From the IMG/VR virus record IMGVR_UViG_3300037010_001713: a DNA stretch of 64,000 nt, one strand, 5' to 3'. Made by a program: the position numbers and the translations under genes. The DNA is from an uncultured virus (IMG/VR IMGVR_UViG_3300037010_001713). Its lineage: Duplodnaviria > Heunggongvirae > Uroviricota > Caudoviricetes. The notes beneath the pieces are model-generated. The model had not been told where the DNA came from, ran no database searches, and saw nothing but the letters and a program-made list of their open reading frames with translations. Below are positions 30,607-54,276 of the stretch, in pieces; the first letter of the stretch is position 1; each line of letters opens with the position of its first letter.

Positions 30607-30615
30607 ATTAACTCC

Positions 30616-31260: not shown

Positions 31261-31283
31261 TTTAACTCCTTAAATTTAGTTAC

Positions 31284-31336
31284 ATATATACTATGTAACT
31301 GAAAAAAAATAAGATAACTAAAACTTATACGTATGT
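31284..31336 (-). promoter_or_regulatory. Accessory promoter motif with upstream partial palindrome
   Basis: TTTTTTTCAGTTACATAGTATAT; upstream ACTTATACGTAT. Confidence 0.65.
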
Positions 31337-31374
31337 AACAGATAGTGTGGTGATAACGCACCACACTATCTGTT
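31337..31374. terminator. Stem-loop, paralog of the hairpin at 29957
   Basis: AACAGATAGTGTGGTG-ATAACG-CACCACACTATCTGTT. Confidence 0.65.
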
Positions 31375-32240: not shown

Positions 32241-32264
32241 ATGTAACTCCTTTAGTTTTTATAC

Positions 32265-32317
32265 TTATATACTATGTAACTGAAAAAAAATAAGATAACT
32301 AACTTATACGTATAAGT
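32265..32317 (-). promoter_or_regulatory. Accessory promoter motif with perfect palindrome
   Basis: T8-CAGTTACATAGTATAT; palindrome ACTTATACGTATAAGT at 32302-32317. Confidence 0.7.
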
Positions 32318-32366
32318 CGGTATGTACACCTCAGGATCTATGTTTTATAGATACTAAGGTATGATT

Positions 32367-33155: not shown

Positions 33156-33158
33156 TTT

Positions 33159-33773
33159 TTAACTCCTTAATCCATCGTTCGGATAATCATTTAGTTCCTG
33201 TCGGACCCTATTCAGGGCCTGATCATATAATGGGGTGTAGCACCACAATAGCCCCGGAATATGGGTCATTCCGTAATATCTTTCAGACTCATAGCCACTT
33301 ACTCTGGTGTCCCAGTATGTACTGGTACCCCCCGTTGTGTACATATCAAGGTGATGTCTACTGTCGACTTCGACAATAGACCACTCAGAATTATGTGTTT
33401 TGGTGTCTACTTTGACGAGAAACTCATCAAGAGATATGTGCGCTCCGCTCTTGACGATATTGAAGATCTTCTCGGGGTCGTCTGTGAAGATCTTCGTTAC
33501 ATCAGTGCGGACACCGTTAATATATGTTCCAGTGAGATTGCTGACGACTAACATATCTTTGTCAGCCTCCTTCACTAGTTTGTCCCAGAGGTGTCCTTCG
33601 AGACCTCCAAAAGTTTCGGGGTTTATTAATTCTGATAGGTATCTGACGATACCTCTTTTAGTTAATAGGGATTTCAGGGTGAAATCCAGGTCCCTCATAT
33701 GCCCGTAATTTAAATCTATCAAGAGTCTGACACTCTTGATAAATTTTTTTCCAAATATCTTTTCGACTTTCAT
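33159..33773 (-). CDS. Unknown paralog family B, copy 4
   Basis: Same motifs as copies 1-3. Confidence 0.85.
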   Translation of the reverse strand: MKVEKIFGKKFIKSVRLLIDLNYGHMRDLDFTLKSLLTKRGIVRYLSELINPETFGGLEGHLWDKLVKEADKDMLVVSNLTGTYINGVRTDVTKIFTDDPEKIFNIVKSGAHISLDEFLVKVDTKTHNSEWSIVEVDSRHHLDMYTTGGTSTYWDTRVSGYESERYYGMTHIPGLLWCYTPLYDQALNRVRQELNDYPNDGLRS

Positions 33774-33797
33774 TTGTAACTCCTTTTGTTTTTATAC

Positions 33798-33849
33798 TTA
33801 TGTACTATGTAATTGAAAGAAAATAGGATTACTAACTTATGTATATAAG
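33798..33849 (-). promoter_or_regulatory. Accessory promoter motif with near-palindrome
   Basis: TTTTCTTTCAATTACATAGTACAT; CTTATGTATATAAG at 33836-33849. Confidence 0.65.
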
Positions 33850-36648: not shown

Positions 36649-38282
36649 GTGGTGTTTATAGTAGAAACGGGGTTTCGAATCAAACTATAACTATAAAAAA
36701 GTTCGTAGCAACAAAACTACCTGAGTTCCACGACGCGTATAAAACGTCGTTTGTCTTATCAGGCAAACCTAAAACTCTCAACAATCTAGATGATATGCTA
36801 GCCCAATCTAGAACCGAGGTAGAGGGGACTGTAAATCCATATATGTTAGCGAACTTAACTCCAAACATATTGCAAACTTCATCTGGATATGTTGGGACCG
36901 CGGATATCCATGGTGGTTGGAAAAACATCAGATTAAGTTTCATGATGATCGTTGATATATCGGTAATGATGTTTCAGGAGATACAACCCAAGGTGACACG
37001 TATGCTATACACAGGCTACACAGAACCCATTGAGCGACGTATGTGGGACCGTATTGCATATAATGTTTCACAGGGTCGTCAATTCAATTTTCCTGATGAT
37101 CTAACATTCATTATCAACAGTAGTACAGAGTACAGTGTCGACGAGGATATGTATGGTGATAAAAGAGTGACGTATAAGGGTAGTTACTCGTTTTCAAACC
37201 CAACAGACATTAACAACGTGTATTCGTTCACTCATGGATACGACAAAGATCCGATTATTTTCAGTACCCCGAGTGATATCCTTACTCAGATAGCTATCGA
37301 TATGGAAACAGACAATAATGCCATTATCATAGGTAATTCTGATGCGACAAATACTCCCAAGATTATTAATCGGAGACATTCGTCGCCGATGGATTTTATA
37401 ACGGAAACTCTTGGGGCTTATGGCACATCTACACTGACAGCTAGCTCATACGATGTTATCGACAAGAGATCTGCTGTTAGTAACGCGGCACGAGATGCTC
37501 ATGGGTCTATTGGAATGTATAATGATCCTCTTATTAAACATTTCAAGCTACGTAACAATTATGCAGCAGTTTTTGATTTTGATACCCTTGGTTCTTTGAG
37601 AGGTCTGACCAACAGTGTCGGGGGTGTGTTTAAACCTATTGTTAATAGTCTATCTGTGTTAGGTAATCCACTAGATACAGACAGTTCTCACGATAGGACT
37701 CCAGAGCACGTTATAGCTGAGACACTATATGAGTTATTGGCCATAACCATGTTACCAAACGGAATCCTTGAATGCGAATTTACTATTCGTAAAGAGGATC
37801 CTAACGACAATATAGACCCCTATACACAGATGTATAGTCGACGTAATGAATATACTGTTAACATCGTTATTAGGAGTATGATTCATAAACTATCTGAGTA
37901 TGAGGCTCAGAAGAGAGTATCGGCTATAGAGAAAGATCTAGAGTTTATACGGCTACCGTATAGCTTCGCCGATTTTGGACCATTTGAGTCTTTTGGTCTT
38001 ATTTCAGTAATTGAGTGGGGCGAGATAACCACAACAATTCTTAGGGGCGGGATCATACAGAACATAGGTGTTCCTGTAGCTATACCTGGGTTTGCGGATA
38101 CTCTCATATCCAACCAAATAACAACTAATGATGGGCACGTAAACCTAGCTAGGTCTTTGCAACATAATGTATTATCTAAATTGGATAATATGTTTGAGTA
38201 TAACTCATACGATATAGACGATGATTCCGTCGATGATCGAGAAGACACAAAAGGAGTAATAGATGAACGATATCAATATTGA
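36645..38282 (+). CDS. Conserved chimallivirus core protein (phiKZ gp69/PicA-Imp1-like)
   Basis: I.GGW...RLSFMM.V....YTGYTE motif and position after the gp68-like gene. Confidence 0.4.
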   Translation: MSGVYSRNGVSNQTITIKKFVATKLPEFHDAYKTSFVLSGKPKTLNNLDDMLAQSRTEVEGTVNPYMLANLTPNILQTSSGYVGTADIHGGWKNIRLSFMMIVDISVMMFQEIQPKVTRMLYTGYTEPIERRMWDRIAYNVSQGRQFNFPDDLTFIINSSTEYSVDEDMYGDKRVTYKGSYSFSNPTDINNVYSFTHGYDKDPIIFSTPSDILTQIAIDMETDNNAIIIGNSDATNTPKIINRRHSSPMDFITETLGAYGTSTLTASSYDVIDKRSAVSNAARDAHGSIGMYNDPLIKHFKLRNNYAAVFDFDTLGSLRGLTNSVGGVFKPIVNSLSVLGNPLDTDSSHDRTPEHVIAETLYELLAITMLPNGILECEFTIRKEDPNDNIDPYTQMYSRRNEYTVNIVIRSMIHKLSEYEAQKRVSAIEKDLEFIRLPYSFADFGPFESFGLISVIEWGEITTTILRGGIIQNIGVPVAIPGFADTLISNQITTNDGHVNLARSLQHNVLSKLDNMFEYNSYDIDDDSVDDREDTKGVIDERYQY

Positions 38283-39723
38283 ATTAACTTTAGGTGAATT
38301 GTATCTGAATATGTTAACAGCGCTAGGTTGTACTGTTGACGATACAGGGGTTATAAGTTTATATGGTAATAATGTTAAGAGTGACGAGGACAGTAACCTC
38401 ACATTCTTATTACCAGTTAAAAATAATATAAAAGACGTGGACGTCCTAGATAAGGCGACTGGTAAGTTTGTTAAGAGTAAACAACTCTTTAATCCGCTCG
38501 ACGAAAACGCACTAAATAACACAACTCCTACACTGAGAATGGTGAAGAGTACTGCGTTAAAAAGGATTAACTATTTGGTGGTTGGTTGTATGGGCTTGTT
38601 ATTGAAATTAGGATCTAACGATCTAGCCAATACATCAGCCCTTAACGTTAATCTGAATAAGTACATAGAGTCTATCAATGGATTGCTTAGACCAAATATG
38701 GCTAATGTAATTGATGATAAAACGGAAAGTATGTTTAAGGTTCTAACGGATGCAGTCATAAACATCGATGGAGGCTTCCTGAAGTGTTTCATCAAGAACA
38801 ACGGTCTGATAGGAGATACTAAATACTTTAAAGTAACTACGCTTTATAGTGATCTATATCGGATGTTTTACGATGCTGAGGACGATAAAACTAAGATAGC
38901 TGAACTCAATGCTCATCTTAGAGAAAAATATGGCGTTAAATTAAACCTCAGACCAAAAGACGTCAGTGTCTTGATCATCATAATGAAAAACGTCATACCT
39001 GACATCCGACATGATGGTAACGTTTACTATGGTAGCGTGGATCAAGAGACTCCTAGTATTTGTTCAGTGTGGTCTTGTTTTTACGATATGGTTAGCGGCG
39101 TGGGGTCTATAGCTGCTGGGTTAGTTACTTCGTTTCCAACACTGGCTGGGCAACTCATCGTTGATCTAAGTGATGTACCGTCTACATTAGACGGGTTAGC
39201 TGTGAAATACAAAGATGAGTTACAGTACATACCAAGGGATAGCCGAAGAGCGATCCGTGTTATTGGCGGACCAGAGACGATCGAAAAGATCGATCATGTC
39301 CGTATCGCTCCAAAAATCCCTGGTCTCGGTGAGAGGCTTAGCGATACCGGTCGAAATATCAATACAACCAGAGTAATCGAACCAGAGGTTGTCCGACCTA
39401 ATCGAGTTACTACTCCCATCGTAGAGCGAGATATAGATCCACTAAGTCGATTAATCAACCGAGGGGGGGATGAAATAGCGAATGGTATGCGTTATATTAG
39501 TGAAAGTCCTCGTCCAGTCAGACCTAGTATGAGGAACTCTGAGCGTTTACCTCAGTCGCGGGAGTATGATACATCTCGAATGCATAATGGATCTAATAGG
39601 TACATGGGTGATATTCGGGACATTAGACCCGACGATCGTTTCACTAGTCAATACGGTCGAGGTAGTGGCGATAGATACAATCGCGGATATGACCGGGTTC
39701 GCGGAGACGATCTGCTATATTAA
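38263..39723 (+). CDS. Conserved chimallivirus core protein (phiKZ gp70-like)
   Basis: LY..ML..LG..VD..G.I and FNPL.EN motifs; low-complexity R/D/P-rich C-terminus. Confidence 0.45.
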   Translation: MNDINIELTLGELYLNMLTALGCTVDDTGVISLYGNNVKSDEDSNLTFLLPVKNNIKDVDVLDKATGKFVKSKQLFNPLDENALNNTTPTLRMVKSTALKRINYLVVGCMGLLLKLGSNDLANTSALNVNLNKYIESINGLLRPNMANVIDDKTESMFKVLTDAVINIDGGFLKCFIKNNGLIGDTKYFKVTTLYSDLYRMFYDAEDDKTKIAELNAHLREKYGVKLNLRPKDVSVLIIIMKNVIPDIRHDGNVYYGSVDQETPSICSVWSCFYDMVSGVGSIAAGLVTSFPTLAGQLIVDLSDVPSTLDGLAVKYKDELQYIPRDSRRAIRVIGGPETIEKIDHVRIAPKIPGLGERLSDTGRNINTTRVIEPEVVRPNRVTTPIVERDIDPLSRLINRGGDEIANGMRYISESPRPVRPSMRNSERLPQSREYDTSRMHNGSNRYMGDIRDIRPDDRFTSQYGRGSGDRYNRGYDRVRGDDLLY

Positions 39724-39739
39724 AAAAGGAGATAAAGCT

Positions 39740-40867
39740 TTGAATAACGGGTCAATACGTACATTAACCCTCAGCGACTTACATTTAGGGCATCGACGTA
39801 ACAAAACCTCTGAGATTGTTAACAATCTCAGAGGTTACTTTAGGAAGTATGATAATAAGTTTAAGCAGCTTGATATTATCTTTTTAGACGGCGATGTCTT
39901 TGACCGAAACCTTACGACATATAGCGACGAGTTCCGCTTAATAGTTAACTGGTTCGGTGATTTAGCCATATATTGCGAAATAAACAATATTAAGCTAAGG
40001 GGACTAGAGGGAACACCATCTCACGATTGGCGTCAACTGTCTGTTATATATGATATGTTAAAAAAACATCGACCAAATCTAGATTTCAAATACTACGATA
40101 CCCTAAGTATAGAAGTTATGAGTGATCTAGATATAAGTATTCTTTACGTTAATGATGAATACCGATCTAATGCGCTAGATACACAAGAAGATATTAAGTT
40201 ATTGTTGAAAAAGAATAACTTAGAGCGTGTTGATCTAACACATATGCATGGTATGTTCACATATCAATTACCGATAGTTTCGAACAGCACTCATTCAGAG
40301 GAGTTCTATATGGGTATAACCAGATGGTCTATTAACATAGGACACATACACACACATAGTGTTTTTGGTAGGATAATAGCTCAAGGCTCCTTTGATAGGC
40401 TAAGGATGAAAGAAGAGGAACCAAAGGGGGGTATTTATGCGACGTATAGAGATGATGGATATGAATATCTGTTTCTGGAGAACACAGAGGCAAAAACCTT
40501 TGATACCATAGACACAGTTGGTCTCGATATTGAAAAAACCCTCAGGAAAATAAAGAAACATATAAGAAATAAGCTTAAGGATTCTTATTTCGCAATAACA
40601 TTATGGTCTGGTAATTCCCAGATCAGTATAGAAATGCTGAAGGAATATCTTGGTCTTGTATTTTTTGAGTATAATTTCCGTTTAGTACCTGTTGATTCAG
40701 AAACAAAACAGGACTATAACAAAATAGATTTCGGTTTCTCTGAAAGTTTCTCAATAACACCCGATAACATAGATAAACTTGTTAACGATGAGATAACAAA
40801 TAGGAAACTGGAAAACTCGAGCATCATACTACTTACTCTAGCAAACATAAAGGATAACCTAAAATGA
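39740..40867 (+). CDS. sbcD: SbcD/Mre11-like metallophosphoesterase nuclease
   Basis: SDLHLG, GDVFD, GTPSHD, HG and GHIH motifs; AAGGAG RBS before TTG 39740. Confidence 0.85.
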   Translation: MNNGSIRTLTLSDLHLGHRRNKTSEIVNNLRGYFRKYDNKFKQLDIIFLDGDVFDRNLTTYSDEFRLIVNWFGDLAIYCEINNIKLRGLEGTPSHDWRQLSVIYDMLKKHRPNLDFKYYDTLSIEVMSDLDISILYVNDEYRSNALDTQEDIKLLLKKNNLERVDLTHMHGMFTYQLPIVSNSTHSEEFYMGITRWSINIGHIHTHSVFGRIIAQGSFDRLRMKEEEPKGGIYATYRDDGYEYLFLENTEAKTFDTIDTVGLDIEKTLRKIKKHIRNKLKDSYFAITLWSGNSQISIEMLKEYLGLVFFEYNFRLVPVDSETKQDYNKIDFGFSESFSITPDNIDKLVNDEITNRKLENSSIILLTLANIKDNLK

Positions 40868-41727
40868 ATCCAAATAAAAAAGACTTCGATGAGAGAACGC
40901 TATCATCTTTCGGCGTATCGGTGGGTACTGGATTAATGTTAGAATCTCTATTTACTCCAAGAACACCTAGGATAGATGATAAGAGGACAATTCCTAATGA
41001 CTACGACTTAACGGGATATACGAAACATTACATCAACGCGTACACACTAATTAGAAATATTATGTCTAGTGTACGTGGCTTTAGTGATGAAGATATCCTT
41101 ACGTCGAAGTATTTAGCTGGTGTGTTAATAGATGAGATGGAAATCATTTCGCGATTATACGACGACGTACTATTAGATCCTGTGTTTTATCTGCCTGTGT
41201 ATAAGGATATAATGCTTGCTATGAACATCGGTAAGCCGAATAAAAAACCAACAAAGTCCAGGGCGATATTAGATGCGATGTACAAAATACGCGATAAAAT
41301 ATCGATTGGCCTAACACCCGATCCTAATATAATCAAGATTAAGTATAAACTTAAAAAAGAGAATACAAAAGCTCTTATAACGACACACATAGCAGTGGAT
41401 CTATGTAATTATGTAAGCTTTAATAAACTAGTCTTATTAGAGTCGAACACTGGAAAGTTCAAAGAACAATCTGAGTGGTGGTCTAAGTTTAAAAAAGATT
41501 CAGTAGAGGATCTAAGCGTCGTACCTTTTTCTGAGACAACTATGTATCTTTTCGGGGACGGATGGGTCGTTATGCCTATATCTACAAACGAAAGAAACAC
41601 AATAACTGGGATGTTGTTGGAAAACGGGGTTAATCCTAATACAAGTTATGTTAGGATGACTGATGTGTTAAAGCAGAATAAAGATATTTATAGATATATC
41701 AGACAACATCGAAAAGTGTATGTTTAA
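40864..41727 (+). CDS. Conserved phiKZ-like hypothetical protein (gp66-like)
   Basis: FGVSVGT.L..E, TL.RN, ITTH..VDL, LLES.TG and FGD motifs; coupled to sbcD. Confidence 0.55.
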   Translation: MNPNKKDFDERTLSSFGVSVGTGLMLESLFTPRTPRIDDKRTIPNDYDLTGYTKHYINAYTLIRNIMSSVRGFSDEDILTSKYLAGVLIDEMEIISRLYDDVLLDPVFYLPVYKDIMLAMNIGKPNKKPTKSRAILDAMYKIRDKISIGLTPDPNIIKIKYKLKKENTKALITTHIAVDLCNYVSFNKLVLLESNTGKFKEQSEWWSKFKKDSVEDLSVVPFSETTMYLFGDGWVVMPISTNERNTITGMLLENGVNPNTSYVRMTDVLKQNKDIYRYIRQHRKVYV

Positions 41728-41806
41728 TCAGTAGATTAAGCTGGTTGCCAGATAAACACAGAGCTATTGTTAGAAGCAATAGCTCTGTGTTTCTATTTTT
41801 TTCAAT
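41728..41806 (+). repeat. Diverged copy of 45968-46046 (helicase 3' end plus hairpin)
   Basis: Ungapped hand alignment gives 63/79 identical bases, with compensatory changes in the hairpin stem. Confidence 0.85.
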
Positions 41807-41845
41807 TGTGTAACATATGAGTATAAATCAAAACAGGGAGACGTT

Positions 41846-42661
41846 ATGACGGCAATAACAAAAGAGACTCAACACACTATCAAGTGTGTTGAGGAATACA
41901 CAGGTAAACCATTCAGTGATAGTCAAGATATAATTGAATTAAACCTAATTGACAAAGAAATCGTAGATCTAACCCCGCTAAAGGGGTTTACTAAACTCAC
42001 TTGTTTACACCTTAACATGAATAGTATCGAAGATATATCCCCACTTGCATATATGACTCAACTCACTGAGTTGAGTCTCAGCTTGAACGAAATTGAGGAT
42101 ATATCATCACTAGCGGGGTTAGCGCAGCTGGAACAGCTAGATCTTGGTTATAACAAAATTACAAATATATCCCCGCTAGCGGGGATGACCTCACTCACCG
42201 AACTTCATCTTGATTGTAACACCATTGAGGGTTTACGCCAACTAATGGATATAACACAGTTGAATAAGCTGTATCTTGGTTATAACGATATCAAAGATAT
42301 ATCCCCGCTTGCTGGGATGACAGGGCTTACTGAGTTGTATCTCAGCAGTAACGAAATAACGGATATATCTTCATTGACGGGGATGAATAATCTCATGGGC
42401 CTATCTCTTAACGGTAACAGAATCAGAGACTTATCCCATTTAGCTGGATTAACGCAGCTGTCATATCTGGATATTGGTCATAATGAAATAGAAGATATAT
42501 CCCCGCTTGCCGGGATGACGCAGCTGAAGTGTCTGTTTATCCATGATAACAAAATGATGAGTTTATCCCCACTAGAGGGATTAAACCAGCTGGAGCAGCT
42601 GGCTCTTGACGGGTTTCATGTTATATGTGGCCCAGATATAAGGGAACTATTTCTTAATTAA
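41846..42661 (+). CDS. Internalin-like LRR protein (LRR-7, ~10 repeats)
   Basis: N-cap HTIKCVEEYTGKPFSD; variant promoter T7-CAATTGTGTAACATATGAG upstream. Confidence 0.92.
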   Translation: MTAITKETQHTIKCVEEYTGKPFSDSQDIIELNLIDKEIVDLTPLKGFTKLTCLHLNMNSIEDISPLAYMTQLTELSLSLNEIEDISSLAGLAQLEQLDLGYNKITNISPLAGMTSLTELHLDCNTIEGLRQLMDITQLNKLYLGYNDIKDISPLAGMTGLTELYLSSNEITDISSLTGMNNLMGLSLNGNRIRDLSHLAGLTQLSYLDIGHNEIEDISPLAGMTQLKCLFIHDNKMMSLSPLEGLNQLEQLALDGFHVICGPDIRELFLN

Positions 42662-42671
42662 AAATAACATT

Positions 42672-42706
42672 TACTTCAGTCTTGCCTAAACGGCGAGACT
42701 GAAGTA
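42672..42706 (+). terminator. Hairpin downstream of LRR-7 (TAAAC loop)
   Basis: TACTTCAGTCTTGCC-TAAAC-GGCGAGACTGAAGTA, with one G-U pair on the sense strand. Confidence 0.7.
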
Positions 42707-42737
42707 TGATTAAAAATACTAGCTCATGCGTAACTTT

Positions 42738-42808
42738 TTTTATACCTGAAGACCTAATGCATTAGTTCTATTTATTTCATTCGTAAGCATATCAAAATAT
42801 AAAGAGAC
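42738..42808 (-). pseudogene. Remnant copy of the 3' end of gene 46069-46428
   Basis: 60/71 identical to 46067-46137. Reads VSLYFDMLTNEINRTNALGLQV* versus VSLYFDVFVNEINRTRVLGLQV*. Confidence 0.8.
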
Positions 42809-42851
42809 CATACCTTACAATTATTGTATGAATATAATATAAGGACCTAAA

Positions 42852-43967
42852 ATGTTTTCGAACTACGTAGATGTAAACAAGCTAAAAACTATGGATGAGT
42901 TTTACACGTACACGCAACCATACGGTAGCTTAGCTAGAGCTTTCGGCAACCGTGTCTATGGTATCGATCATAACAGATCTGGTAGTGTGGTTCCGCCTAG
43001 TAGAAATAAAGTTGAATATGTTTTTTTTACAAGACCTCAGCTTAATATGACTGATAAAAACATATCAAATAACCCAGCGTTACATAACCTGTTATCTAAA
43101 AAAGATACTTCATCGGCTAATTTCGTAAAAACAACACTAGATCCTAGACTAGGTTTTTACGATAAGTCGACAATATCGCCTATCGTTGATAATCAGAATA
43201 TATTCATACCTATTATGACAAATGATTGTATTTCATTAAGTGGATGGCCTGATAGAACAGCTCCAGTATATACATCACCTGAGGGCATACGAGGAGAGCA
43301 GTGGAGCGTAGTTGATGGAACTATCGAAATAAATAATAAATATGACCTAACAGCCAATTTTGATAACATCATAGGAGATGACTTAGTTTCCCTTATTTCG
43401 ACATGGCTTACAGCACAATCCGCAGTACAAGAGAACGTTATGTCTAAATATCCACGAGAAATTGCTCGTGGAGTAATGGATTATCACACTAGAGTATATG
43501 TTTTAACTTTAGATGAAACTAGAACATTCGTGCGAATGTTTGCTTGTTGTGGGGCTGGCATAATAACAAATGACACTATAGGGTCTTTTTTTGATTATAA
43601 TAGAAACGACCCACAGTTGAGTGGTAGTGATACTTTTGGAGTCCGAATATCATGTGTCGGTGCTTACTATAATGATTTCCAATATATAATGGCTTTTAAT
43701 GACTCTGTCTGCATAGGTAAACCTGAAATGTATGACGTCACTGAGGGTATACCATCCACTATGAGAAAATTACCAAATCAGTTATCCGATGGAATGAACT
43801 ACAGGTCATACCCGTTGATTAACGAGGAGACGTTGGAATTAGAGTGGTGGGTCGATAGTAATTCTCCATCGTTTAAACATATGTATAGTATATTAACCGA
43901 TGATGGTAAACGGTTGATGGATAAAGCTAAAACGTGCTGGTCCAATAAACGTGACCAGAAATTATAG
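42852..43967 (+). CDS. phiKZ-like virion structural protein (gp88-like)
   Basis: VFFTRPQLN, TLDP, SLSGWPD, EQWS.VDG and DY.TRVY motifs. Confidence 0.55.
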   Translation: MFSNYVDVNKLKTMDEFYTYTQPYGSLARAFGNRVYGIDHNRSGSVVPPSRNKVEYVFFTRPQLNMTDKNISNNPALHNLLSKKDTSSANFVKTTLDPRLGFYDKSTISPIVDNQNIFIPIMTNDCISLSGWPDRTAPVYTSPEGIRGEQWSVVDGTIEINNKYDLTANFDNIIGDDLVSLISTWLTAQSAVQENVMSKYPREIARGVMDYHTRVYVLTLDETRTFVRMFACCGAGIITNDTIGSFFDYNRNDPQLSGSDTFGVRISCVGAYYNDFQYIMAFNDSVCIGKPEMYDVTEGIPSTMRKLPNQLSDGMNYRSYPLINEETLELEWWVDSNSPSFKHMYSILTDDGKRLMDKAKTCWSNKRDQKL

Positions 43968-43977
43968 GGGGTGTTGA

Positions 43978-45987
43978 ATGCTAACGTGTAAGTCAACGAG
44001 TGATAAAATAATATTTACTGGTGATTTTAGTAGTCTGCCAAGTTTAAGTTGTATGTCGAAATCTATGAGATTCCTATCGGATGAAAAAGTCATAAATATT
44101 GAAGTTGAGAATATAACTGTGAATAAATATTTTCTTCGAGAGTTGCTGGCTGAGCTGAATTACTATAGAGCCGATTCACAAGATAAGAAGTTGACTGATG
44201 TGGACAGACTTTTAGATATGTTTGATGATACAGCGGATCTACCTAAATGTATCACAGACCTATACGAAAATGATACAGTTAAGTATGATATTGAGACAGT
44301 TAACGATAGGTTCGTATATAAAGTAAAAGAACATCAAAAAGAGTTTTTAACAAAATATTTAGATGGGAAAAAAGAGTTTGGTTTAACAGGATTACTGTTA
44401 GATGCGGCACCAGGGACTGGAAAGACTTTTATGGCCGAGCTATTGGTAGAGGTCTTAGCTATTGATTTTGTATTTGTTATAGCCCCTCTTAACACAATTA
44501 AAACGGTTTGGATGGACTCTATTGAGTCGGATTACCGAGGTCCACCGACACATTCTATTATCACTGAGACATATAGCATTTCGAAATACAATATCATAAA
44601 CTATGAGAAAATTCCGAAAATAGATGAACTTATGACCCAGATCGCACCAAAATCTAAAGTGATGATAATAGTGGATGAAGCTCATAACATGACTACGAAA
44701 GAATCTGGCAGGGTAAAAAGTCTATTGGATTCACGTATTTTCAAACTGGCTTCTGACGTATTGCTTCTATCGGGCACCCCAGTTCGATCGAATACTGAAG
44801 AGATAGACACTATGATCCGTATACTCAATAAGGGGGTACCTGAACGAGAACTGAAGATATTAATTCAATTCTACGAGGACGTATCTACAGGCAGACTAAA
44901 AAGAATACGATACAACAATATGTCACATAGGATAGATAAATCTGTTCTAACACTTCCTCCGATTGCAGTCGAACACCTAGAGGCGAGATTAAAGAATGGT
45001 GACGAATACATTATGAAAAGCGTGACAGCAGCTATGGAGGACTATAAAAACGAAAGGATTCAATTACATTTATCGCACCGAGAAGAATACTACAAACAAT
45101 TTATAACCATAGTGAATGGACTAACAGACTCCAAAACTAATAATCAATATCTAAAATATGTTGATGAGCTTTACAAAATAAATAAACCAGTCTCTATTTT
45201 TGATTTAGCTAGTAGGGTAAAATATTTAACGATCTTCGAGGATAAGTATATTTATCCGCGTATGAGTAAGGACGAGGGAGATCACTTTATGGATATTCAA
45301 TCCGTTGTTAAATATCCTTGGTTGAAAGCAAATGGTGAGGCTCTTGGACGTATATTAACACCTGCCCGTATACGATGTTTTAGCGATATAGCGAAGAATA
45401 TAAGTTACGAGGATATAATTGCTAAATCAAACTCTAAAGTTGTTATTTTCTCATCTTATATAGAGGTTTGTGAATCCATTTGTAAAGTTCTCGATAAGAA
45501 AAAAATAAAATATAGCTATATCTTTGGAGATAATACTAAATCAACCGATAGAGTGGTCTCTGATTTTATGAATCCAAATGGTGATGTTAGAGTTATGGTT
45601 GCAACATATAAGGCGTTAGGTACTGGTGTGCGTTTAACATCTGCTAGTACCGTTGTGATGATAGATATCCCGTTCAGACATTATATTTATGATCAAGCTA
45701 TATCTAGAGTATGGCGTCTAGGTCAGACGAATAATGTCAAATTAGTGTTACCAGTATTATACACGTTTAATGAACTAAATTTATCGACTAGAAATTATGA
45801 TATAATTGATTTTTATAATAACAAAGTTGAATATATGACCGGAAACATTAATGATTTTACGGTGAGACCAGACGATAAATTTTTTCCAAATTCTGCTGAG
45901 ATTATTGATGAGAATGAATTTATACATGAACTAGGTAATGAAAAATATAGACATAAATTAATAGATTTCAGTGGATTAAGCTGGTAG
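43978..45987 (+). CDS. SNF2-like SF2 helicase
   Basis: HQ, DAAPGTGKT, INYEK, DEAH, LSGTP, GTGV.LT.A and QAISRVWRLGQ. Confidence 0.88.
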   Translation: MLTCKSTSDKIIFTGDFSSLPSLSCMSKSMRFLSDEKVINIEVENITVNKYFLRELLAELNYYRADSQDKKLTDVDRLLDMFDDTADLPKCITDLYENDTVKYDIETVNDRFVYKVKEHQKEFLTKYLDGKKEFGLTGLLLDAAPGTGKTFMAELLVEVLAIDFVFVIAPLNTIKTVWMDSIESDYRGPPTHSIITETYSISKYNIINYEKIPKIDELMTQIAPKSKVMIIVDEAHNMTTKESGRVKSLLDSRIFKLASDVLLLSGTPVRSNTEEIDTMIRILNKGVPERELKILIQFYEDVSTGRLKRIRYNNMSHRIDKSVLTLPPIAVEHLEARLKNGDEYIMKSVTAAMEDYKNERIQLHLSHREEYYKQFITIVNGLTDSKTNNQYLKYVDELYKINKPVSIFDLASRVKYLTIFEDKYIYPRMSKDEGDHFMDIQSVVKYPWLKANGEALGRILTPARIRCFSDIAKNISYEDIIAKSNSKVVIFSSYIEVCESICKVLDKKKIKYSYIFGDNTKSTDRVVSDFMNPNGDVRVMVATYKALGTGVRLTSASTVVMIDIPFRHYIYDQAISRVWRLGQTNNVKLVLPVLYTFNELNLSTRNYDIIDFYNNKVEYMTGNINDFTVRPDDKFFPNSAEIIDENEFIHELGNEKYRHKLIDFSGLSW

Positions 45988-45995
45988 CCATAGAG

Positions 45996-46030
45996 ACACA
46001 TAGCTGTTGCTGGAAGCAACAGCTATGTGT
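45996..46030. terminator. Bidirectional stem-loop
   Basis: ACACATAGCTGTTGCT-GGA-AGCAACAGCTATGTGT between convergent genes. Confidence 0.7.
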
Positions 46031-46068
46031 ACTTCTTTTTTTCGATCACATTAAAGCGGATTATCCTT

Positions 46069-46428
46069 TTATACCTGGAGACCTAACACTCTGGTTCTAT
46101 TTATTTCATTTACAAACACATCAAAATATAAAGAGACAGTCCTTTCGTCTAGTATGGTTAACATACTATTATCAAAACCAAAACTATCTGATGAATTCAG
46201 ATTATTAGCTATAAGGAATGGATACCAATGTTCCTGTGGTACATTCATAGTTAATAATAAACCATAAAAATTTCCAATATTACTGGCTAATACTTCTGGT
46301 TTTATCTTATCGACACGTAATACCAAAGGACTACCCACAACCATAAGCGGTTTTAATGTATCCCATTTCTTAAACATGGCTCTTGATAGACCTATATTTA
46401 TAACATTTATTTGTTTACTAAGATTCAT
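46069..46428 (-). CDS. Conserved hypothetical protein
   Basis: GNFYGLL...VP...WYP.L.AN motif; GGAG RBS. Confidence 0.7.
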   Translation of the reverse strand: MNLSKQINVINIGLSRAMFKKWDTLKPLMVVGSPLVLRVDKIKPEVLASNIGNFYGLLLTMNVPQEHWYPFLIANNLNSSDSFGFDNSMLTILDERTVSLYFDVFVNEINRTRVLGLQV

Positions 46429-46442
46429 TTGCGTTCTCCTTT

Positions 46443-47246
46443 CTAGATGTTGTTTCCTAATCTAGCTCTTATTAGGGATGAGAAGTAATCAGAGTCCGAC
46501 ATAATGGTAATAGGTTTCCAACGTTTTGTTAGAAATTCAATATAGTCATCATATGCGGTAGAGTAACCGTCGATAACATCGTTAACATATCCCAACTCAT
46601 GACCTTGATATATAAAACCCTTATCTAAGTTCAGTCGAACTCTAGAGAATATAAAAGCCTTAACAGCAAGAGTCACTAACGATGAGAACATAAGATAAGC
46701 TCTTCTCGGTAGATTTTCGTAGTTAGCTCCGTTCTCTATTGTTATATCGAGTAGCCCATACCCCATTAGGAGTAATGGTTCGGATATGTAAATTTTGTTA
46801 TTACCTATTAATGTTAACCTAGATGTAATAGTGCCAGCTGTGTTAACTAAGCTATTACCCATTTTACCATATTGTTCCATCAAATCACTTTGACCACTCA
46901 TAGCTGGATACCCTGTATTTGCCTGTATATTCTGGTTTACAACTGTTTCTATTAGATTATTCGCTGAAATTATAGCTCTACCGTTCGTTAGATAACTCGG
47001 TACGGTCACTAGGCAGTCTATATTGTTAACGTATTCTATCTCACAGTCTTGTAGTCGCACTCTGATCGTCTCACCAGATATAATGTTACAGTCTTTCATC
47101 ACTTTAGGTCTGATCACAGCAGCTGTTATTTTTTCATCTAATGATACATAGGCTGACCCATATTCTTTTTTATTAAATGCTAGTTCTAATATACTAACAT
47201 CAACTGAGTAACGTAAATCCATTAAAGCGTTTGTAATAGCGTTCAT
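46443..47246 (-). CDS. Conserved phiKZ-like protein (putative virion protein)
   Basis: MNAI..AL...IL..AF, VIRP.V..DCN and LAVKAFI...G.ELG motifs. Confidence 0.55.
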   Translation of the reverse strand: MNAITNALMDLRYSVDVSILELAFNKKEYGSAYVSLDEKITAAVIRPKVMKDCNIISGETIRVRLQDCEIEYVNNIDCLVTVPSYLTNGRAIISANNLIETVVNQNIQANTGYPAMSGQSDLMEQYGKMGNSLVNTAGTITSRLTLIGNNKIYISEPLLLMGYGLLDITIENGANYENLPRRAYLMFSSLVTLAVKAFIFSRVRLNLDKGFIYQGHELGYVNDVIDGYSTAYDDYIEFLTKRWKPITIMSDSDYFSSLIRARLGNNI

Positions 47247-47316
47247 ATTTCTTCCTTTTTCAACAAAATGTTAAGCGGTACACCTTATATGAGATTAACA
47301 CAGAGGATATTAAAAA

Positions 47317-47856
47317 ATGGGTAGAAACACACAAAAAGAGCAAAAGAAAATGCTCAGAATTACATATAGGGAGTATCATAACTCACTAAAAGACACTATG
47401 AGTGCTATAGATAGTGTTGATTCTTATTTAGTAGAGTCGACTAATTATTTTGATAAAGATCTAAGAGGTGAGATCAGTATAGAAGATGAAGCTAAGTTTT
47501 ATGGTTTAGTTCGTGGCTGTAGTGAACTATTAGATCAGGCTTTGGACCACGTTAAAGCGGAGTTTGAGTATGCTAAAAACATCCCAAATACCAATGCAAT
47601 CGTCAAGAATGTCGATCGGAGGGACGATCTAATAGCCAGAATGCTAGATCTAACGACTGTCAAACATGGTTTAGAGTCTTCGCAACTAACTGTGGCTGTA
47701 TTCCTAGCTGGGGCAACTAAAGTTTATACACAAGAAGAGATCGATGAGTTAAAGCGTCAAGTGGCTGAAGATCTAGTTATGTCGGCGGCTCTTAAAGAGA
47801 AAATTAACGAAGCAAAAGAGTTTGATAAATCAACCAAACAACTCGCAGAACTTTAA
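47317..47856 (+). CDS. Hypothetical helical protein
   Basis: 179-aa ORF with RBS. Confidence 0.65.
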   Translation: MGRNTQKEQKKMLRITYREYHNSLKDTMSAIDSVDSYLVESTNYFDKDLRGEISIEDEAKFYGLVRGCSELLDQALDHVKAEFEYAKNIPNTNAIVKNVDRRDDLIARMLDLTTVKHGLESSQLTVAVFLAGATKVYTQEEIDELKRQVAEDLVMSAALKEKINEAKEFDKSTKQLAEL

Positions 47857-47871
47857 GATAAGGAGATCATA

Positions 47872-49608
47872 ATGTCTAAACATAAAAATAACAAACTGGT
47901 AAACACAGATGTGGAAGATAAAGAAACAGTAACAGTAAGCGACGGTCCTGGAGTGGTGGCTACGACTACCGATGATAGCAACGCTGTAGAGGTTAGTGGA
48001 GAACCAACTACTAATTTAGATAGCGAGACCCAACCAGTGGATGAGCCGATGAAGTCTGAAAAAGAGATGTCCGATATAAGTAACAGTTACCTGATACCTG
48101 TAACTTCGAAGGATGTTTATGAGGAATTCATGAAAACACTCGAAAATGAGGGTAGTATCTTAGTGAGGGATTTATATCATAGGTATCTAGAAACATATGG
48201 TGACGATTTCGTAAACGACGAAGTATTGGTCGAGCAATATCGTGATGAGGCTCGTAAACTACGTGATTATCATAATATGGATATGAATGAATCCGAGCAG
48301 TTTTCTGTTGATTCGGTATTAGCTAGTGCCATGAACGGTAGTGACGTATCTTTATCTGATTGTAAAAAAGAAAACATTAAAATTAACGGCTACGACTCAG
48401 CAGTACCGAATGTTCGCTACGCTAATTTGAATACAATAGACGCCAATCTTAAGGGACCAGCTGCGGTGTTCGCTATCAACTCAGCGCTCGGTCTCTCAGG
48501 AGCTATTAAGTTACCTCTATACGGATCTGGTTTAAATATAACTCTAAGGGCTCCAGTTCTATCAGAAGAAGCTGTGTTAAGACATAGATTAGCTACGGAC
48601 GTGGTTAGTTATAATAGAGCTATGCTATCGTCGAACGAAGGGAACTTTTCAGCGTATTTCTACGAGAATGTGTTTACATCTTTGAGTCGAACTGTTCTCA
48701 CAACTAACCTAGGCGCTCATGAAGATATTGGAGCCATTGAACTTGATAGCGGTGAAAAACTGGATTTAGGTGACCTAATTTTACTTAACGACTTAAACAG
48801 TTTTGTAACCGGGTCTATAGCCACTCAGTATCCAGATGGTTATAACGCAACAATACAGTGTAAAAACACAGCAATATTGGTGGATAAAAAACCTAAATGT
48901 ACCTTTTCAAAACTGGTCAACTTTGACCCACTTAATCTTTTTCATACTGATTATCGTAGATTAAACGAGTATTGTCGAGCGCATATGCTTAAGGTAAATA
49001 GCAAATCTGTTACATATAAAGACATACTAGATTATAGAGAAAATCTATATAACGATCCAGAGAAGTCGAAATTAGAATTTACTAATCACCGAAGAGATGG
49101 TTCTAAGATAACAACAACAGTCTATTTCGAAGTTCCCACCGTTAACCATTTTATCGCTGTTGGTAAAGTCTGGCATAAGATGTATGTTAAAGAGATCACT
49201 GACATATTAACAAAGGTTAGCGATAAACCAGATGACGAGATCATTACTGAGTTCGATCAAATGCACAGAGTAGCCGATGGGTGTTCGTACGTTAAACGCA
49301 TCACAGTCAATATGTATGATGCTGATGATAACCTATTGAGTACATCTGAGGTCTCTGGTATTAAAGAAATCATCGAATCTATTATTGTCATTGGAAACGA
49401 AGTGAAACGAGGTCACGGTAATCGGTTCTTAGAAAAACTGAACGAGTATAGAGAATATACTACAATAGGTATAGTCGGAACGCGTAATTTCGTATGTCCC
49501 ACCTGTATGGCAAAACAGTCCGATAGTTTAGATGTATTTTCCGATTTTATACCGCTAAACATCATTGCGCTTTTTACAAACCTAGGCGGCACAGGGACAG
49601 TAGCTTAA
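47872..49608 (+). CDS. Conserved phiKZ-like protein, possibly baseplate-hub assembly (T4 gp26-like)
   Basis: LPLYGSG..ITL..P, YPDGY.....C...C and a C-terminal CPTC. Confidence 0.45.
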   Translation: MSKHKNNKLVNTDVEDKETVTVSDGPGVVATTTDDSNAVEVSGEPTTNLDSETQPVDEPMKSEKEMSDISNSYLIPVTSKDVYEEFMKTLENEGSILVRDLYHRYLETYGDDFVNDEVLVEQYRDEARKLRDYHNMDMNESEQFSVDSVLASAMNGSDVSLSDCKKENIKINGYDSAVPNVRYANLNTIDANLKGPAAVFAINSALGLSGAIKLPLYGSGLNITLRAPVLSEEAVLRHRLATDVVSYNRAMLSSNEGNFSAYFYENVFTSLSRTVLTTNLGAHEDIGAIELDSGEKLDLGDLILLNDLNSFVTGSIATQYPDGYNATIQCKNTAILVDKKPKCTFSKLVNFDPLNLFHTDYRRLNEYCRAHMLKVNSKSVTYKDILDYRENLYNDPEKSKLEFTNHRRDGSKITTTVYFEVPTVNHFIAVGKVWHKMYVKEITDILTKVSDKPDDEIITEFDQMHRVADGCSYVKRITVNMYDADDNLLSTSEVSGIKEIIESIIVIGNEVKRGHGNRFLEKLNEYREYTTIGIVGTRNFVCPTCMAKQSDSLDVFSDFIPLNIIALFTNLGGTGTVA

Positions 49609-49682
49609 AGTCTGACTTTGGTCGGCATATCCTAGATAGACTTCCAGACGACAACACACCAGACAACGCTATTCTAGCTAGT

Positions 49683-50051
49683 ATGGTTAGTATGCGATCT
49701 GGGATCTACGATAAGTACCCAGACGGTATGTCGGATCCTCTAGCTGAAGAATTTCTAAATGAACACTACGATTTGTGTTTATTTGAGAATGAAAAATTTA
49801 AAGTAAGTGAGTATGTTGGTTCAGCACAACGAAATCCCTATGAAGATGTATCTGATTTCGTAACAGATCATGATGAACTTATGGGCTACTTGAGTGGTGA
49901 TATAGGTAAACTATATGGAATCACCATATCTGAATATATGAAAACAACAAGGTATGAGAGAAATCTCTTACACGCAGTCGGAAACGAATACAATAAGAAG
50001 CGTGAAAAAATGCTTGATGAGTTGAGGAGAGTGCAGGATGGAGAGAATTGA
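49683..50051 (+). CDS. Conserved hypothetical protein
   Basis: I..LYGITISEY motif. The reading frame may begin further upstream. Confidence 0.55.
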   Translation: MVSMRSGIYDKYPDGMSDPLAEEFLNEHYDLCLFENEKFKVSEYVGSAQRNPYEDVSDFVTDHDELMGYLSGDIGKLYGITISEYMKTTRYERNLLHAVGNEYNKKREKMLDELRRVQDGEN

Positions 50052-51504: not shown

Positions 51505-51527
51505 TTTCTGACTCCTTTGGTTTTATA

Positions 51528-51556
51528 CTTATATACTATGTAATTGAAAAAAAAAA
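51528..51556 (-). promoter_or_regulatory. Accessory-gene promoter motif
   Basis: T10-CAATTACATAGTATATAAG. Confidence 0.7.
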
Positions 51557-51604
51557 GAATAACGCGAGAACTAGTCGGTCCAAATATATATTATGGTATA
51601 TCTT

Positions 51605-51626
51605 AGTCTCTCTGTTTAGAGAGACT
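51605..51626. terminator. Hairpin downstream of LRR-8
   Basis: AGTCTCTCT-GTTT-AGAGAGACT (CT-AAAC-AG on the - strand). Confidence 0.6.
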
Positions 51627-51639: not shown

Positions 51640-52287
51640 CTATAGCGGATTTCCATCCGTTCTCAAGTCAGTGAGTTGAGTTAACCCAGCTATAGGAGAT
51701 AGATCTCTGATGCGGTTATAGCTAAGGTCTAACGCACTTAGCTGAGACATCTCTGAAAGCGGGGATATATCTTCTATACCGTTGCGACGGAGGTTCAATA
51801 TCCTCAGCTTGGTTAGACTAGATAGCGTAGATATATCTCTAAGTCCACTAGCATAAAGCTCCAGCTCGGTGAGTTGAGTCAACTCAGCAAGCAGGGATCG
51901 GTCTTCGACCCTCATAAGACTAATACTCAAACAAGTAAGCTTAGTAGAGTTCCACAGTGGATTTATGTCCTCTATACGGTTACCAACAAGATCTAGTTTG
52001 GTTAGTTCTCTCTGCCATGAAAGCGCTTCTATATCTTCTATCTTATTAAAACTAAGATCTAGCTCTTTGAGCCGCGGCAACCATAGTAGTGAGGAGATAT
52101 CTCTGATGCGATTATCGCCAAGACTCAATATTTCTAGCTGTGTCAATTCCCTTAACGGGTATAGGTTAAAGATACCCTTACCAGTTAAATTCAATTCAGT
52201 TATGTCTTTACTATCCTCGAAAGACCGACCCGTGTATCTTTCAATACACTCGATGGTGTGACTTTGCCTCCACGGTATATACCCCAT
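51640..52287 (-). CDS. Internalin-like LRR protein (LRR-8, ~8 repeats)
   Basis: N-cap HTIECIERYTGRSFED, ends TDGNPL; RBS places the start at 52287. Confidence 0.9.
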   Translation of the reverse strand: MGYIPWRQSHTIECIERYTGRSFEDSKDITELNLTGKGIFNLYPLRELTQLEILSLGDNRIRDISSLLWLPRLKELDLSFNKIEDIEALSWQRELTKLDLVGNRIEDINPLWNSTKLTCLSISLMRVEDRSLLAELTQLTELELYASGLRDISTLSSLTKLRILNLRRNGIEDISPLSEMSQLSALDLSYNRIRDLSPIAGLTQLTDLRTDGNPL

Positions 52288-52311
52288 TGTAACCCCTTTT
52301 TTTATTTTGCA

Positions 52312-52339
52312 CATATACTCTATGTAATTAAAAAAAAAA
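52312..52339 (-). promoter_or_regulatory. Accessory-gene promoter motif
   Basis: T10-AATTACATAGAGTAT. Confidence 0.65.
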
Positions 52340-52385
52340 GAAAAGCATAATGACTGGCTAGTCCAGTGGATTATTGACCTATATT

Positions 52386-52411
52386 CCAGTACCTCTAAAC
52401 AGAGGTGCTGG
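52386..52411. terminator. Hairpin downstream of LRR-9 (CT-AAAC-AG loop)
   Basis: CCAGTACCTCT-AAAC-AGAGGTGCTGG. Confidence 0.6.
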
Positions 52412-52412
52412 T

Positions 52413-53315
52413 TTATTCCAATATGAGTGTAGTAAGATGTTCCAGACCCATTAGTGGTGCTAGGCTTTTGACACTTAGACCACGGAGATACAGCTCGGTT
52501 AGCTGAGTCAATCCCTTTAGAGGAGCTATATCGTCGATTTCGTTATAGCTAATATCGAGTATTTCCAACTGAGTCATACCCGATAGTTGTGTTAAATCTT
52601 TGACTCTGTTCTCACCAAGATTTAGCTTTTTTAGCTGAGCCATAGCCATTAACGTTGACAAATCTTCGACTTTGTTTCCGTAGACATCCAGACCACTGAG
52701 CTGAGTTAGCCCCGCAATCGGGGACAGATCTACGATTTTGTTATTATTAGCAATATCCAGCTTTTTCAACTGAGTTAATCCAGCTATAGGTAATAGATCC
52801 TCTATTACGTTATCATGTAGATGCAGCTCATCGAGATTTGTCATCCCAGATAGCGAGGATAGATTGGATATTTTGTTATAGCCAAGATACAGTCTTTTCA
52901 ACTGGGTTAATCCTGTAAGCGGGGTTAAATCTTCGATATCACAGCCATCGAGACGCAGCCAAGTAAGCTTAGTCATCCCCGCTAGTGGGAGTAAATTCTC
53001 TATTTTGTTATCCCATAGATATAACCTACTGAGTTGCGTCATCCCTGTCAGAGAGTCCAAGTTTGTTATTTTGTTACTGTTAAGCTGTAGATGGGTGAGG
53101 TTCACCAGTCCCTCTAATGGAGTTATGTCTTCGATCCTGTTGTCTCCGAGATACAGCTCGGTAAGCTGTGTTAATTTCGTAAGAGGGGTTATATCTACGA
53201 TTTTTTCGCTAGTTAAATTTAATTCAGTGATAGTCGAGATATTACCGAACGGGACACCAGTACGTCTTTCAATGCACTCGATGGTGTATTTTTGGGCCTC
53301 TGTTAAGTTTTCCAT
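52413..53315 (-). CDS. Internalin-like LRR protein (LRR-9, ~12 repeats)
   Basis: N-cap YTIECIERRTGVPFG; regular 22-aa repeats with one 23-aa unit. Confidence 0.92.
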   Translation of the reverse strand: MENLTEAQKYTIECIERRTGVPFGNISTITELNLTSEKIVDITPLTKLTQLTELYLGDNRIEDITPLEGLVNLTHLQLNSNKITNLDSLTGMTQLSRLYLWDNKIENLLPLAGMTKLTWLRLDGCDIEDLTPLTGLTQLKRLYLGYNKISNLSSLSGMTNLDELHLHDNVIEDLLPIAGLTQLKKLDIANNNKIVDLSPIAGLTQLSGLDVYGNKVEDLSTLMAMAQLKKLNLGENRVKDLTQLSGMTQLEILDISYNEIDDIAPLKGLTQLTELYLRGLSVKSLAPLMGLEHLTTLILE

Positions 53316-53337
53316 TTTAGCTCCTTAAGTTTTTATA

Positions 53338-53365
53338 CCTATATCTTATGTAATTGAAAAAAATA
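53338..53365 (-). promoter_or_regulatory. Accessory-gene promoter motif
   Basis: TTTTTTCAATTACATAAGATAT. Confidence 0.65.
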
Positions 53366-53463: not shown

Positions 53464-54276
53464 ATGAATGAATTTGACGAAATACTGTCTTCACTAGACG
53501 ATCATTTTGGAACACAGACCAATTCGACTGGGTCTGTTAATGTAACTAAGCTCGATGGTTATGCGGGTAGCTCTAGTAAGAAAAAAAGTATTATCGATAC
53601 TGTCGATACGTTCGAACCTAAAGACATAGACCCAGAGTCTATACAAGAGAAGCGATCCAGAACTTTCGCTATCGGTTATGCTGGTGAGCGTGGGTCTAAA
53701 GATCAATGGGATCCAAGTCCAGAGACTATTAAAAAGTACGTAGAGGTAGCCGAGATACTTTTTAAATCTGGTTACGTCTTCAGATCTCAGGGTTGGAAAT
53801 ATCCCAAAGGTAATGAACCATTTAAAACCGCTTTAGAAAAGACTATAATGGAACTCCCTAATGCTAAATCGGAGGTTTATAACCTATGGAATGGATCATC
53901 TAACACCGAGAATCCTAGACTGGACTCACCAACTATGAAAGCATTCCAATACACTTGCCATTTGGACACCCAACAAGGGGAGACCGTTTTTAACGATCGC
54001 AACAAATTTACTAAGGTTATTATGGCCCGTAATACACACCTGATGCTTGGCGAAAACTTAGATTCACCTCTTGGTGTATATATCATAGCTACCCCCGATG
54101 GTTCTGAGGCTAACGTTCGTGGAGCTAATGTGGGCGGATTATATCTATATCTTAAGATGGCTAGTAAATATAGCATTCCCGTCATTAACATAAACCCTAG
54201 AAAAGGTCAAAATACAAAGAGTCTTGTACCACAGCTAAAAGAGCTTCTATCAGACGCTATGGTGGTCGGTGAATGA
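53464..54276 (+). CDS. SLOG/DprA-like Rossmann-fold protein (phiKZ gp67-like)
   Basis: L...GY.FRS.G, MARN...MLG..L.SP...I..TPDG and A..Y.IPVIN motifs. Confidence 0.5.
   Translation: MNEFDEILSSLDDHFGTQTNSTGSVNVTKLDGYAGSSSKKKSIIDTVDTFEPKDIDPESIQEKRSRTFAIGYAGERGSKDQWDPSPETIKKYVEVAEILFKSGYVFRSQGWKYPKGNEPFKTALEKTIMELPNAKSEVYNLWNGSSNTENPRLDSPTMKAFQYTCHLDTQQGETVFNDRNKFTKVIMARNTHLMLGENLDSPLGVYIIATPDGSEANVRGANVGGLYLYLKMASKYSIPVININPRKGQNTKSLVPQLKELLSDAMVVGE

Follow-up and report, generated by a model that had tools for sequence, protein, structure and literature searches.

Two diverged copies of one helicase terminator junction, one holding a leucine-rich-repeat gene unit, in an uncultured phiKZ-like phage

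In jumbo phages, host takeover and counter-defence are commonly ascribed to accessory genes, whose gain and movement are poorly documented outside the T4-like phages. In lambdoid phages, the morons of Hendrix and colleagues are promoter-gene-terminator units located between core genes; to our knowledge, no description of them mentions membership in a family of repeated promoters or flank footprints such as those found here. In T4-type phages, two reports describe PeSL (promoter-early stem-loop) cassettes, in which a repeated promoter and stem-loop flank non-essential genes among core genes (Arbiol et al. 2010, PMC2839356; Comeau et al. 2014, PMC4122927). For jumbo phages with virion RNA polymerases, a review describes a conserved AT-rich motif upstream of the presumed early operons of each phage (Sokolova et al. 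2020, PMC7598289). The subject of this work is a 64,000-nucleotide stretch of DNA of an uncultured virus (IMG/VR record IMGVR_UViG_3300037010_001713), analysed whole and called the window below. It contains the junction between an SNF2-type helicase gene and a convergent gene for a 119-aa protein, together with a second copy of this junction which encloses a leucine-rich-repeat (LRR) gene, LRR-7.

PeSL-mediated shuffling is the closest known analogue, the present locus being alike in outline and not a member. A repeated promoter and a stable stem-loop motif lie between genes in this window too (13 motif copies; folds with z of -6.4 and -7.05), the vacant site keeps a single element, as in the PeSL model, and the inner boundaries of the filled and scar copies lie in the T-run of the motif. 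Unlike in the PeSL cassettes, the promoter is not sigma-70-like according to the scan and fits the AT-rich early motifs of jumbo phages with their own RNA polymerases; the phage is phiKZ-like and not of the T4 superfamily, as judged by PHROG and tblastn matches; and the unit brought along some 75 bp of the core genes that adjoined it at its former site, an outcome that a PeSL-to-PeSL exchange would not give. The 13-copy motif agrees with the jumbo-phage early promoters of that review in being AT-rich; it stands before accessory genes and would, like them, be read early. With the morons the locus shares a self-contained transcription unit between two core genes, and it differs from them in the repeated promoter family and the flank footprints. 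What is new is that a single genome contains one cassette site both in occupied form and as a scar, and that pieces of the neighbouring core genes were carried along.

The segment 41728-42808 appears to be an ectopic, 15-20% diverged copy of the helicase/119-aa junction, still filled with one LRR unit (Table 1). According to the history that we favour, with a probability of roughly 0.5, the helicase terminator was once followed by an LRR unit; a copy of this filled junction then arose upstream of the tail-tube gene, and the cassette body was afterwards lost from the native site. The left arm of the filled copy (A1) was identical to its native counterpart (B1) at 63 of 79 positions and the right arm (A2) to B2 at 60 of 71, both without gaps and exactly at the coordinates reported in the earlier note on this DNA. 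Only 20 nt separate the arms in the native copy (46047-46066), as against 931 nt in the other (41807-42737), where they enclose a complete promoter/LRR/stem-loop unit, again as previously noted.

The second-best placements anywhere in the window reached 40/79 for the left arm and 38/71 for the right one, and the best of 50 mononucleotide shuffles of the whole window reached 43 and 39, respectively. Both arms thus lay far above the shuffle maxima, and their significance withstood the test that had been named as a possible refutation. The proposed self-comparison of the window by blastn recovered both arm pairs (E 7e-14 for the left, 8e-15 for the right) and showed them to be the only repeats besides the LRR and paralogue genes, the promoter motifs and local palindromes. 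Gapped local alignment gave scores of 47 and 51 versus maxima of 16 and 23 in 200 shuffles and left the boundaries unmoved; neither placement nor local alignment made any microhomology visible at the outer boundaries. Extension of arm A2 to the tail-tube start was rejected, being not significant with just two score points gained. Order and orientation of both arm pairs are alike in the two copies, and the arms include coding remnants of two different genes. A chance or convergent likeness of two AT-rich terminator regions, imaginable at the G+C content of the window (37.7%) and with T-runs common to terminators, was refuted by the shuffles, self-blastn and local alignment statistics, as well as by the shared arm order and the remnants of two genes, and its probability is close to nil. 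The two arms are true homologues of the helicase/119-aa junction.

The 46 kb copy is the native context and the copy at 41.7-42.8 kb the ectopic one, since the arms lie inside intact genes in the former and are non-coding in the latter; the earlier designation of the 46 kb junction as native holds for the same reason. Positions 41728-41747 are a remnant of the last six helicase codons and the stop codon, with TAG changed to TTG, and the 119-aa remnant stands upstream of the tail-tube gene. The 11 differences in this remnant (arm A2) are spread 3:3:5 over the codon positions, a pattern more like the decay of a non-functional copy where it stands than like two functional genes diverging. A 95%-identical homologue of the 119-aa protein (P0001), encoded on a 1,022-nt JGI contig from another metagenome, has the same C-terminal tail with two replacements. 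The idea that the arms are ends of a mobile element from which the helicase and the 119-aa protein acquire new C-termini was countered by P0001 keeping this tail, an argument weakened since the PHROG match of the 119-aa protein ends at residue 99 of 119.

The space between the arms corresponds to exactly one array period, from the T-run at 41796-41802 to that at 42735-42741, as the anatomy is common to the other cassettes: promoter, ribosome site, LRR gene, stem-loop, spacer and T-run. The first T-run both ends the A1 terminator and opens the promoter motif, and the right-hand one lies where the promoter of the next unit would begin in the tandem arrays. Both inner arm ends fall in T-runs that belong to a terminator tail and to the 5' end of a cassette promoter, and the anatomy bears out the earlier description of the arms as enclosing a promoter/LRR-7/hairpin cassette. 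The stem-loop behind LRR-7 has no T-run behind it on the plus strand and is of the class found behind other cassettes. The LRR-7 promoter is the most diverged of the 13 copies (9/34 mismatches to the working consensus), with the core ACATAGT replaced by GTGTAAC and the downstream ATATGAGTATAAA kept.

The hairpins of A1 and B1 fold with -25.2 and -27.7 kcal/mol (z -6.4 and -5.5), and the terminator scan found both to be terminator-like on the plus strand. Their 16 shared stem pairs carry five substitutions, all of which keep pairing, as two double compensations (G-C to T-A and A-T to G-C) and one change of T.G to C-G; the compensatory changes claimed earlier were thus confirmed. In random placements of five substitutions, pairing was kept in 267 of 200,000 trials (0.13%), so that both copies were kept as hairpins by selection during their divergence. 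The hairpin conservation is silent on where this divergence took place. Conservation of the copied A1 hairpin fits a putative role as terminator of the 287-aa gene.

The native junction is not simply an empty site, as it had been called, because a promoter stump at 46036-46051 and a pre-T-run element contradict this. The 9-mer CGATCACAT (46043-46051) is the 5' core of the cassette promoter, and the first 14-16 nt of the motif are present; TTTTTCGATCACAT at 46038-46051 stands in register with the LRR-7 promoter. When up to one mismatch was allowed, the pattern TTTTTCRATYACAT had 11 matches in the window versus 0.36 expected, a number reached in 0 of 100 shuffles. These comprise nine cassette promoters, 46038-46051 and one unexplained match at 58208-58221 on the minus strand; the 9-mer by itself was less specific (10 matches versus 3.2 expected). 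Further downstream, GGATTATCC resembles, by eye from the motif listing, the GTTATC(T/C) element ahead of promoter T-runs. The native junction could accordingly be read as the 5' half of one promoter unit plus the upstream part of another, and it reads better as a deletion scar of cassette loss, or as a solo unit, than as a virgin site: a unit with its body deleted would leave a promoter 5' half and the next pre-T-run element.

The same stump may be seen differently, with the native junction never filled in this lineage and its terminator tail and promoter-like stump forming a solo unit that served as a recombination target. An empty 170-bp junction copy would first have arisen upstream of the tail-tube gene, and an LRR unit from an array would later have integrated through stump/T-run homology. 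The stump and both T-runs lie exactly at the crossover positions, the number of events equals that of the favoured history, and the PeSL model has a single element in the empty site and two in the filled one (PMC2839356). A bare terminator, on the other hand, needs no promoter core or pre-T-run element, and their presence suggests that the site was formerly occupied; no other LRR gene of the window exceeds about 62% DNA identity to LRR-7, and thus no recent donor is visible within it; and a contig joint from run X1, described below, hints at a filled native-type site. We regard an integration into a never-filled site as unlikely.

Table 1. Features of the two junction copies, LRR gene regions and copies of the promoter motif in the window.
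Feature	Position	Strand	Remarks
287-aa core gene, phrog_3229	40864..41727	+	stop codon directly abuts arm A1
Arm A1	41728..41806	+	copy of helicase 3' end and terminator; hairpin 41754-41792; T-run 41796-41802, then CAAT
Promoter-like motif copy	41797..41830	+	followed by GGAG ribosome site and ATG
LRR gene 7 (LRR-7)	41846..42661	+	271 aa, intact; N-terminal cap common to paralogues
Cassette stem-loop	42672..42706	.	15 pairs, loop TAAAC, -26.5 kcal/mol, z -7.05
Right-hand T-run	42735..42741	+	28 nt behind stem-loop; arm A2 starts inside
Arm A2	42738..42808	-	copy of 119-aa gene stop and last 22 codons; non-coding here
Tail-tube protein gene	42852..43967	+	PF23971, E 6.5e-80
SNF2-type helicase gene	43978..45987	+	Pfam SNF2-rel_dom and Helicase_C; 669 aa
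Arm B1	45968..46046	+	native helicase 3' end (20 nt, six codons and stop); hairpin 45996-46030; T-run 46036-46042
Scar or solo unit	46036..46070	+	T-run, CGATCACAT (46043-46051), TAAAGC, GGATTATCC, TTTT overlapping 119-aa stop codon
Arm B2	46067..46137	-	native stop and last 22 codons of 119-aa gene (46069-46137)
119-aa gene	46069..46428	-	phrog_3455, E 1.7e-6; convergent to helicase
LRR gene regions	12377-16996; 19392-20621; 32367-33155; 41846-42661; 51640-53315		
34-nt motif	14649-14682; 16134-16167; 17011-17044; 20636-20669; 31274-31307; 32255-32288; 33788-33821; 51519-51552; 52303-52336; 53329-53362	-	
34-nt motif	41797-41830; 58035-58068; 59021-59054	+	

Logan contigs came from three runs (X1-X3) belonging to three studies, two of microbial mats and one of sediment, which contained 0.93, 0.41 and 0.10 of the sampled words of 41000-47000, respectively. 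An 874-nt contig of X1 spans 42155-43028 with 0 differences and bridges LRR-7, arm A2 and the start of the tail-tube gene; it comes from a separately built assembly, though X1 may be the source sample of the window itself. No contig among the matches listed bridged the left boundary at 41727/41728, and contigs align on A1 at position 41791 in all three runs (depths 8.3, 6.6 and 2.64). An assembly chimera, with the filled junction of one strain stitched into the genome of another, would be conceivable for a metagenome-type record from samples with several related strains. No repeat on which an assembler could go astray is common to the boundaries 41727/41728 and 42808/42809, and this, together with the bridging contig and the coverage of A1 in all runs, makes such an artefact very improbable.

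Related strains, 81-93% identical over 38000-50000, are abundant and co-occur in all three runs (for example, 152 differences over 806 nt in X1 record 1, and 115 differences plus 4 gaps over 888 nt in X2 record 9). One X1 contig (depth 9.4) follows the window as far as 46030, where the native-type hairpin ends, and resumes at 41868, where the conserved N-terminal part of the LRR genes begins, which would fit a co-occurring strain with an LRR gene behind its helicase terminator. A second joint, from 46672 to 42543 in X2, was not interpretable.

A foreign origin was the first of the two offered in the earlier note, beside an old duplication: the unit, with its 79- and 71-bp flanks, may have come from the filled junction of a co-infecting relative of 80-85% identity and been inserted illegitimately at its present place, in which case the divergence of the arms would be strain divergence and not age. 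The abundant 81-93% identical contigs of the three runs match the 80-85% identity of the arms, the X1 joint fits as well, and both the A2 remnant and P0001 have alanine where the native gene has valine. Homologous recombination would, however, target the native junction and not a place 4 kb away, so an illegitimate insertion without visible microhomology is needed. Moreover, the differences in the 119-aa remnant show no third-position bias, the helicase remnant lost its stop, and the stump shows that the junction of this very lineage had a promoter unit. Import from a relative appears doubtful to us.

The favoured relocation history takes as its starting point what was observed directly, namely homologous arms with defined boundaries, the anatomy of the unit, a promoter stump and two hairpins under selection. 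An LRR unit would have joined the helicase/119-aa junction by recombination within the T-run that is both terminator tail and promoter 5' end, a second T-run adjoining the 119-aa stop codon at the native junction. The filled junction, with about 75 bp of each neighbouring gene, would then have been copied to the interval that separates the 287-aa gene from the tail-tube gene, most simply by a tandem duplication of the tail tube-helicase-junction-119' segment with later loss of the redundant tail-tube/helicase copy, or alternatively by direct ectopic insertion. Finally, the native copy would have lost the cassette body and kept a scar, the net effect being the relocation of LRR-7. We infer both the order and the route of these events, the latter being tandem duplication with losses, ectopic insertion or import from a co-occurring relative. 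Tandem duplications and losses are common event types under headful packaging. The window encodes SbcC-, SbcD-, DprA- and RecJ-like proteins (1-2337, 39566-40867, 53464-54276 and 55225-57018), which we counted in favour of relocation, as this putative recombination toolkit of the phage itself could drive cassette exchanges.

Several points weigh against this history. The tandem-duplication route needs three events, and the insertion of a unit into a stump-bearing site would yield the same end state as deletion from a filled site. The stump is short: TTTTTCRAT already belongs to the arm homology and only YACAT is new (rough p ~0.003), and the pre-T-run element is weaker still. The activity of the LRR-7 promoter is uncertain, given its diverged core, and the codon-position count in the 119-aa remnant comes from just 11 sites. 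The 46030-to-41868 joint has 39 letters on its shorter side with unread letters between the two parts, and it was aligned at 80% likeness, a setting prone to cross-matches, so that a variant of the A locus or a cross-match is possible. Finally, no relative with genomic context was found in the phage records, IMG/VR, JGI contigs or GTDB genomes, and no event could thus be polarised by comparison; the search of relatives proposed earlier, for an LRR gene between the SNF2 helicase and the 119-aa gene, accordingly yielded none. The earlier and wider claim, by which terminator junctions are the general points of entry and exit for LRR cassettes, goes beyond these data, LRR-7 being the only such case in the window.

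The locus is a rare single-genome case in which the occupied copy and the scar are both preserved with boundaries at base resolution. The boundaries point to the T-run, common to intrinsic terminators and to the phage's own presumed early promoter, as a recombination handle, and relocation can evidently drag pieces of neighbouring core genes along. We tentatively propose, as an idea that is more likely wrong than right, that phiKZ-like phages keep their LRR repertoire as units still moving between the terminator junctions of core genes, with the T-run and promoter stump as the handle and with strains differing in the junctions that are filled. The X1 contig with the 46030-to-41868 joint would then be such a strain variant, and the flank-carrying copy would mean that whole junctions, not only units, are exchanged. 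Nucleus-forming phages would in this way possess a cassette system for rapid re-sorting of host-interaction genes.

The window derives from an uncultured, deeply branching phiKZ-like jumbo phage, judging by the PHROG matches, the low identities and an empty megablast search. The matches of the large window genes are to phiKZ-like jumbo phage families, among them virion structural phrog_3004 and phrog_3013, head protease phrog_3014, phrog_3181 and a baseplate protein. Among 50,697 phage records, megablast found nothing that matched 40800-46500. The helicase is about 28% identical to its homologues in 201phi2-1, Pantoea phage Survivor and Ralstonia RP12, the 201phi2-1 match being gp300, for which the GenBank record notes similarity to phiKZ gp203. 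By tblastn the helicase matched 226 records, all below 60% identity (best among the matches listed about 27-29%), and the tail-tube protein 290 records, with a best identity of about 35%. The gene neighbourhoods in 201phi2-1 and Pantoea phage Survivor are unlike that of the window.

Metagenomic and prokaryotic collections gave equally distant matches. For the helicase, IMG/VR held four loci (34-38% identity over short segments), JGI metagenome contigs 12 loci (all at most 39%) and GTDB genomes six loci (22-40% over short helicase segments; five bacterial and one an archaeal metagenome-assembled genome). IMG/VR contained no match to the 119-aa protein and none to the DNA pattern of the arms. 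When nine window proteins were searched by tblastn against all 24 fetched loci, the helicase alone matched, and hence no gene order was in common. Short C-terminal helicase fragments, sought as a neighbour link to the P0001 contig, were not found.

Nine LRR genes were recognised in the window by Pfam, encoding 224-455 aa with 22-residue internalin-type repeats, all within 64 kb. Their DNA repeat period is 66 nt and their pairwise DNA identity about 55-62%; the closest paralogue of LRR-7 in the window is 13892-14693 (62% DNA identity). LRR-7 scored E 1.5e-43 for LRR_4 and E 3.6e-37 for LRR_8, and its closest homologues outside the window were generic LRR proteins of 30-47% identity. Such LRR families seem to be rare in cultured phages. 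The tblastn search of LRR-7 against the 50,697 phage records produced 24 matches, 22 to unannotated 'Listeria phage' fragments and two to Enterococcus records; the 'Listeria phage' fragments are probably host internalin DNA, though this is a guess. Within the conserved N-terminal part of LRR-7 (TQHTIKCVEE), 41868-41893 forms an 11-bp inverted repeat that is terminator-like on the minus strand, and paralogue contigs from the runs start aligning with LRR-7 in this interval.

The 34-nt AT-rich promoter motif (T-run, CAATTACATAG, TATATAAGTATAAAAAC) occupies 13 sites in the window, each copy immediately upstream of a ribosome site and ATG that belong either to an LRR gene or to a small gene with no family assignment. 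In the tandem arrays, every gene has a strong stem-loop behind it, and the next promoter begins with its T-run about 26-45 nt further on; at least six of the 13 copies have a stem-loop at this distance ahead of their T-run. The sigma-70 scan flagged none of the copies at 31274-31307, 32255-32288, 33788-33821 and 41797-41830. The motif is probably the early promoter of the phage and, by analogy with other jumbo phages, may be recognised by a virion RNA polymerase. Among the genes of the window, none was identified as encoding an RNA polymerase. The unexplained match mentioned above, TTTTTCAATTGCAT at 58208-58221 (minus), is a promoter 5' half with one mismatch, inside and antisense to a 273-aa gene (58084-58905), and may be due to chance or be another stump.

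Cassette stem-loops with the loop TAAAC(A) or its complement TGTTTA were found, for example, at ~14700-14735, 16190-16225, 51585-51615, 52370-52400 and 42672-42706. They occur in both orientations relative to the gene and have no T-run on the sense strand, and they may be other than classical intrinsic terminators. At 30001-33773 on the minus strand, an LRR gene is interspersed among four paralogous genes without a Pfam family (201, 214, 288 and 204 aa), which use the same promoter motif and near-identical hairpins.

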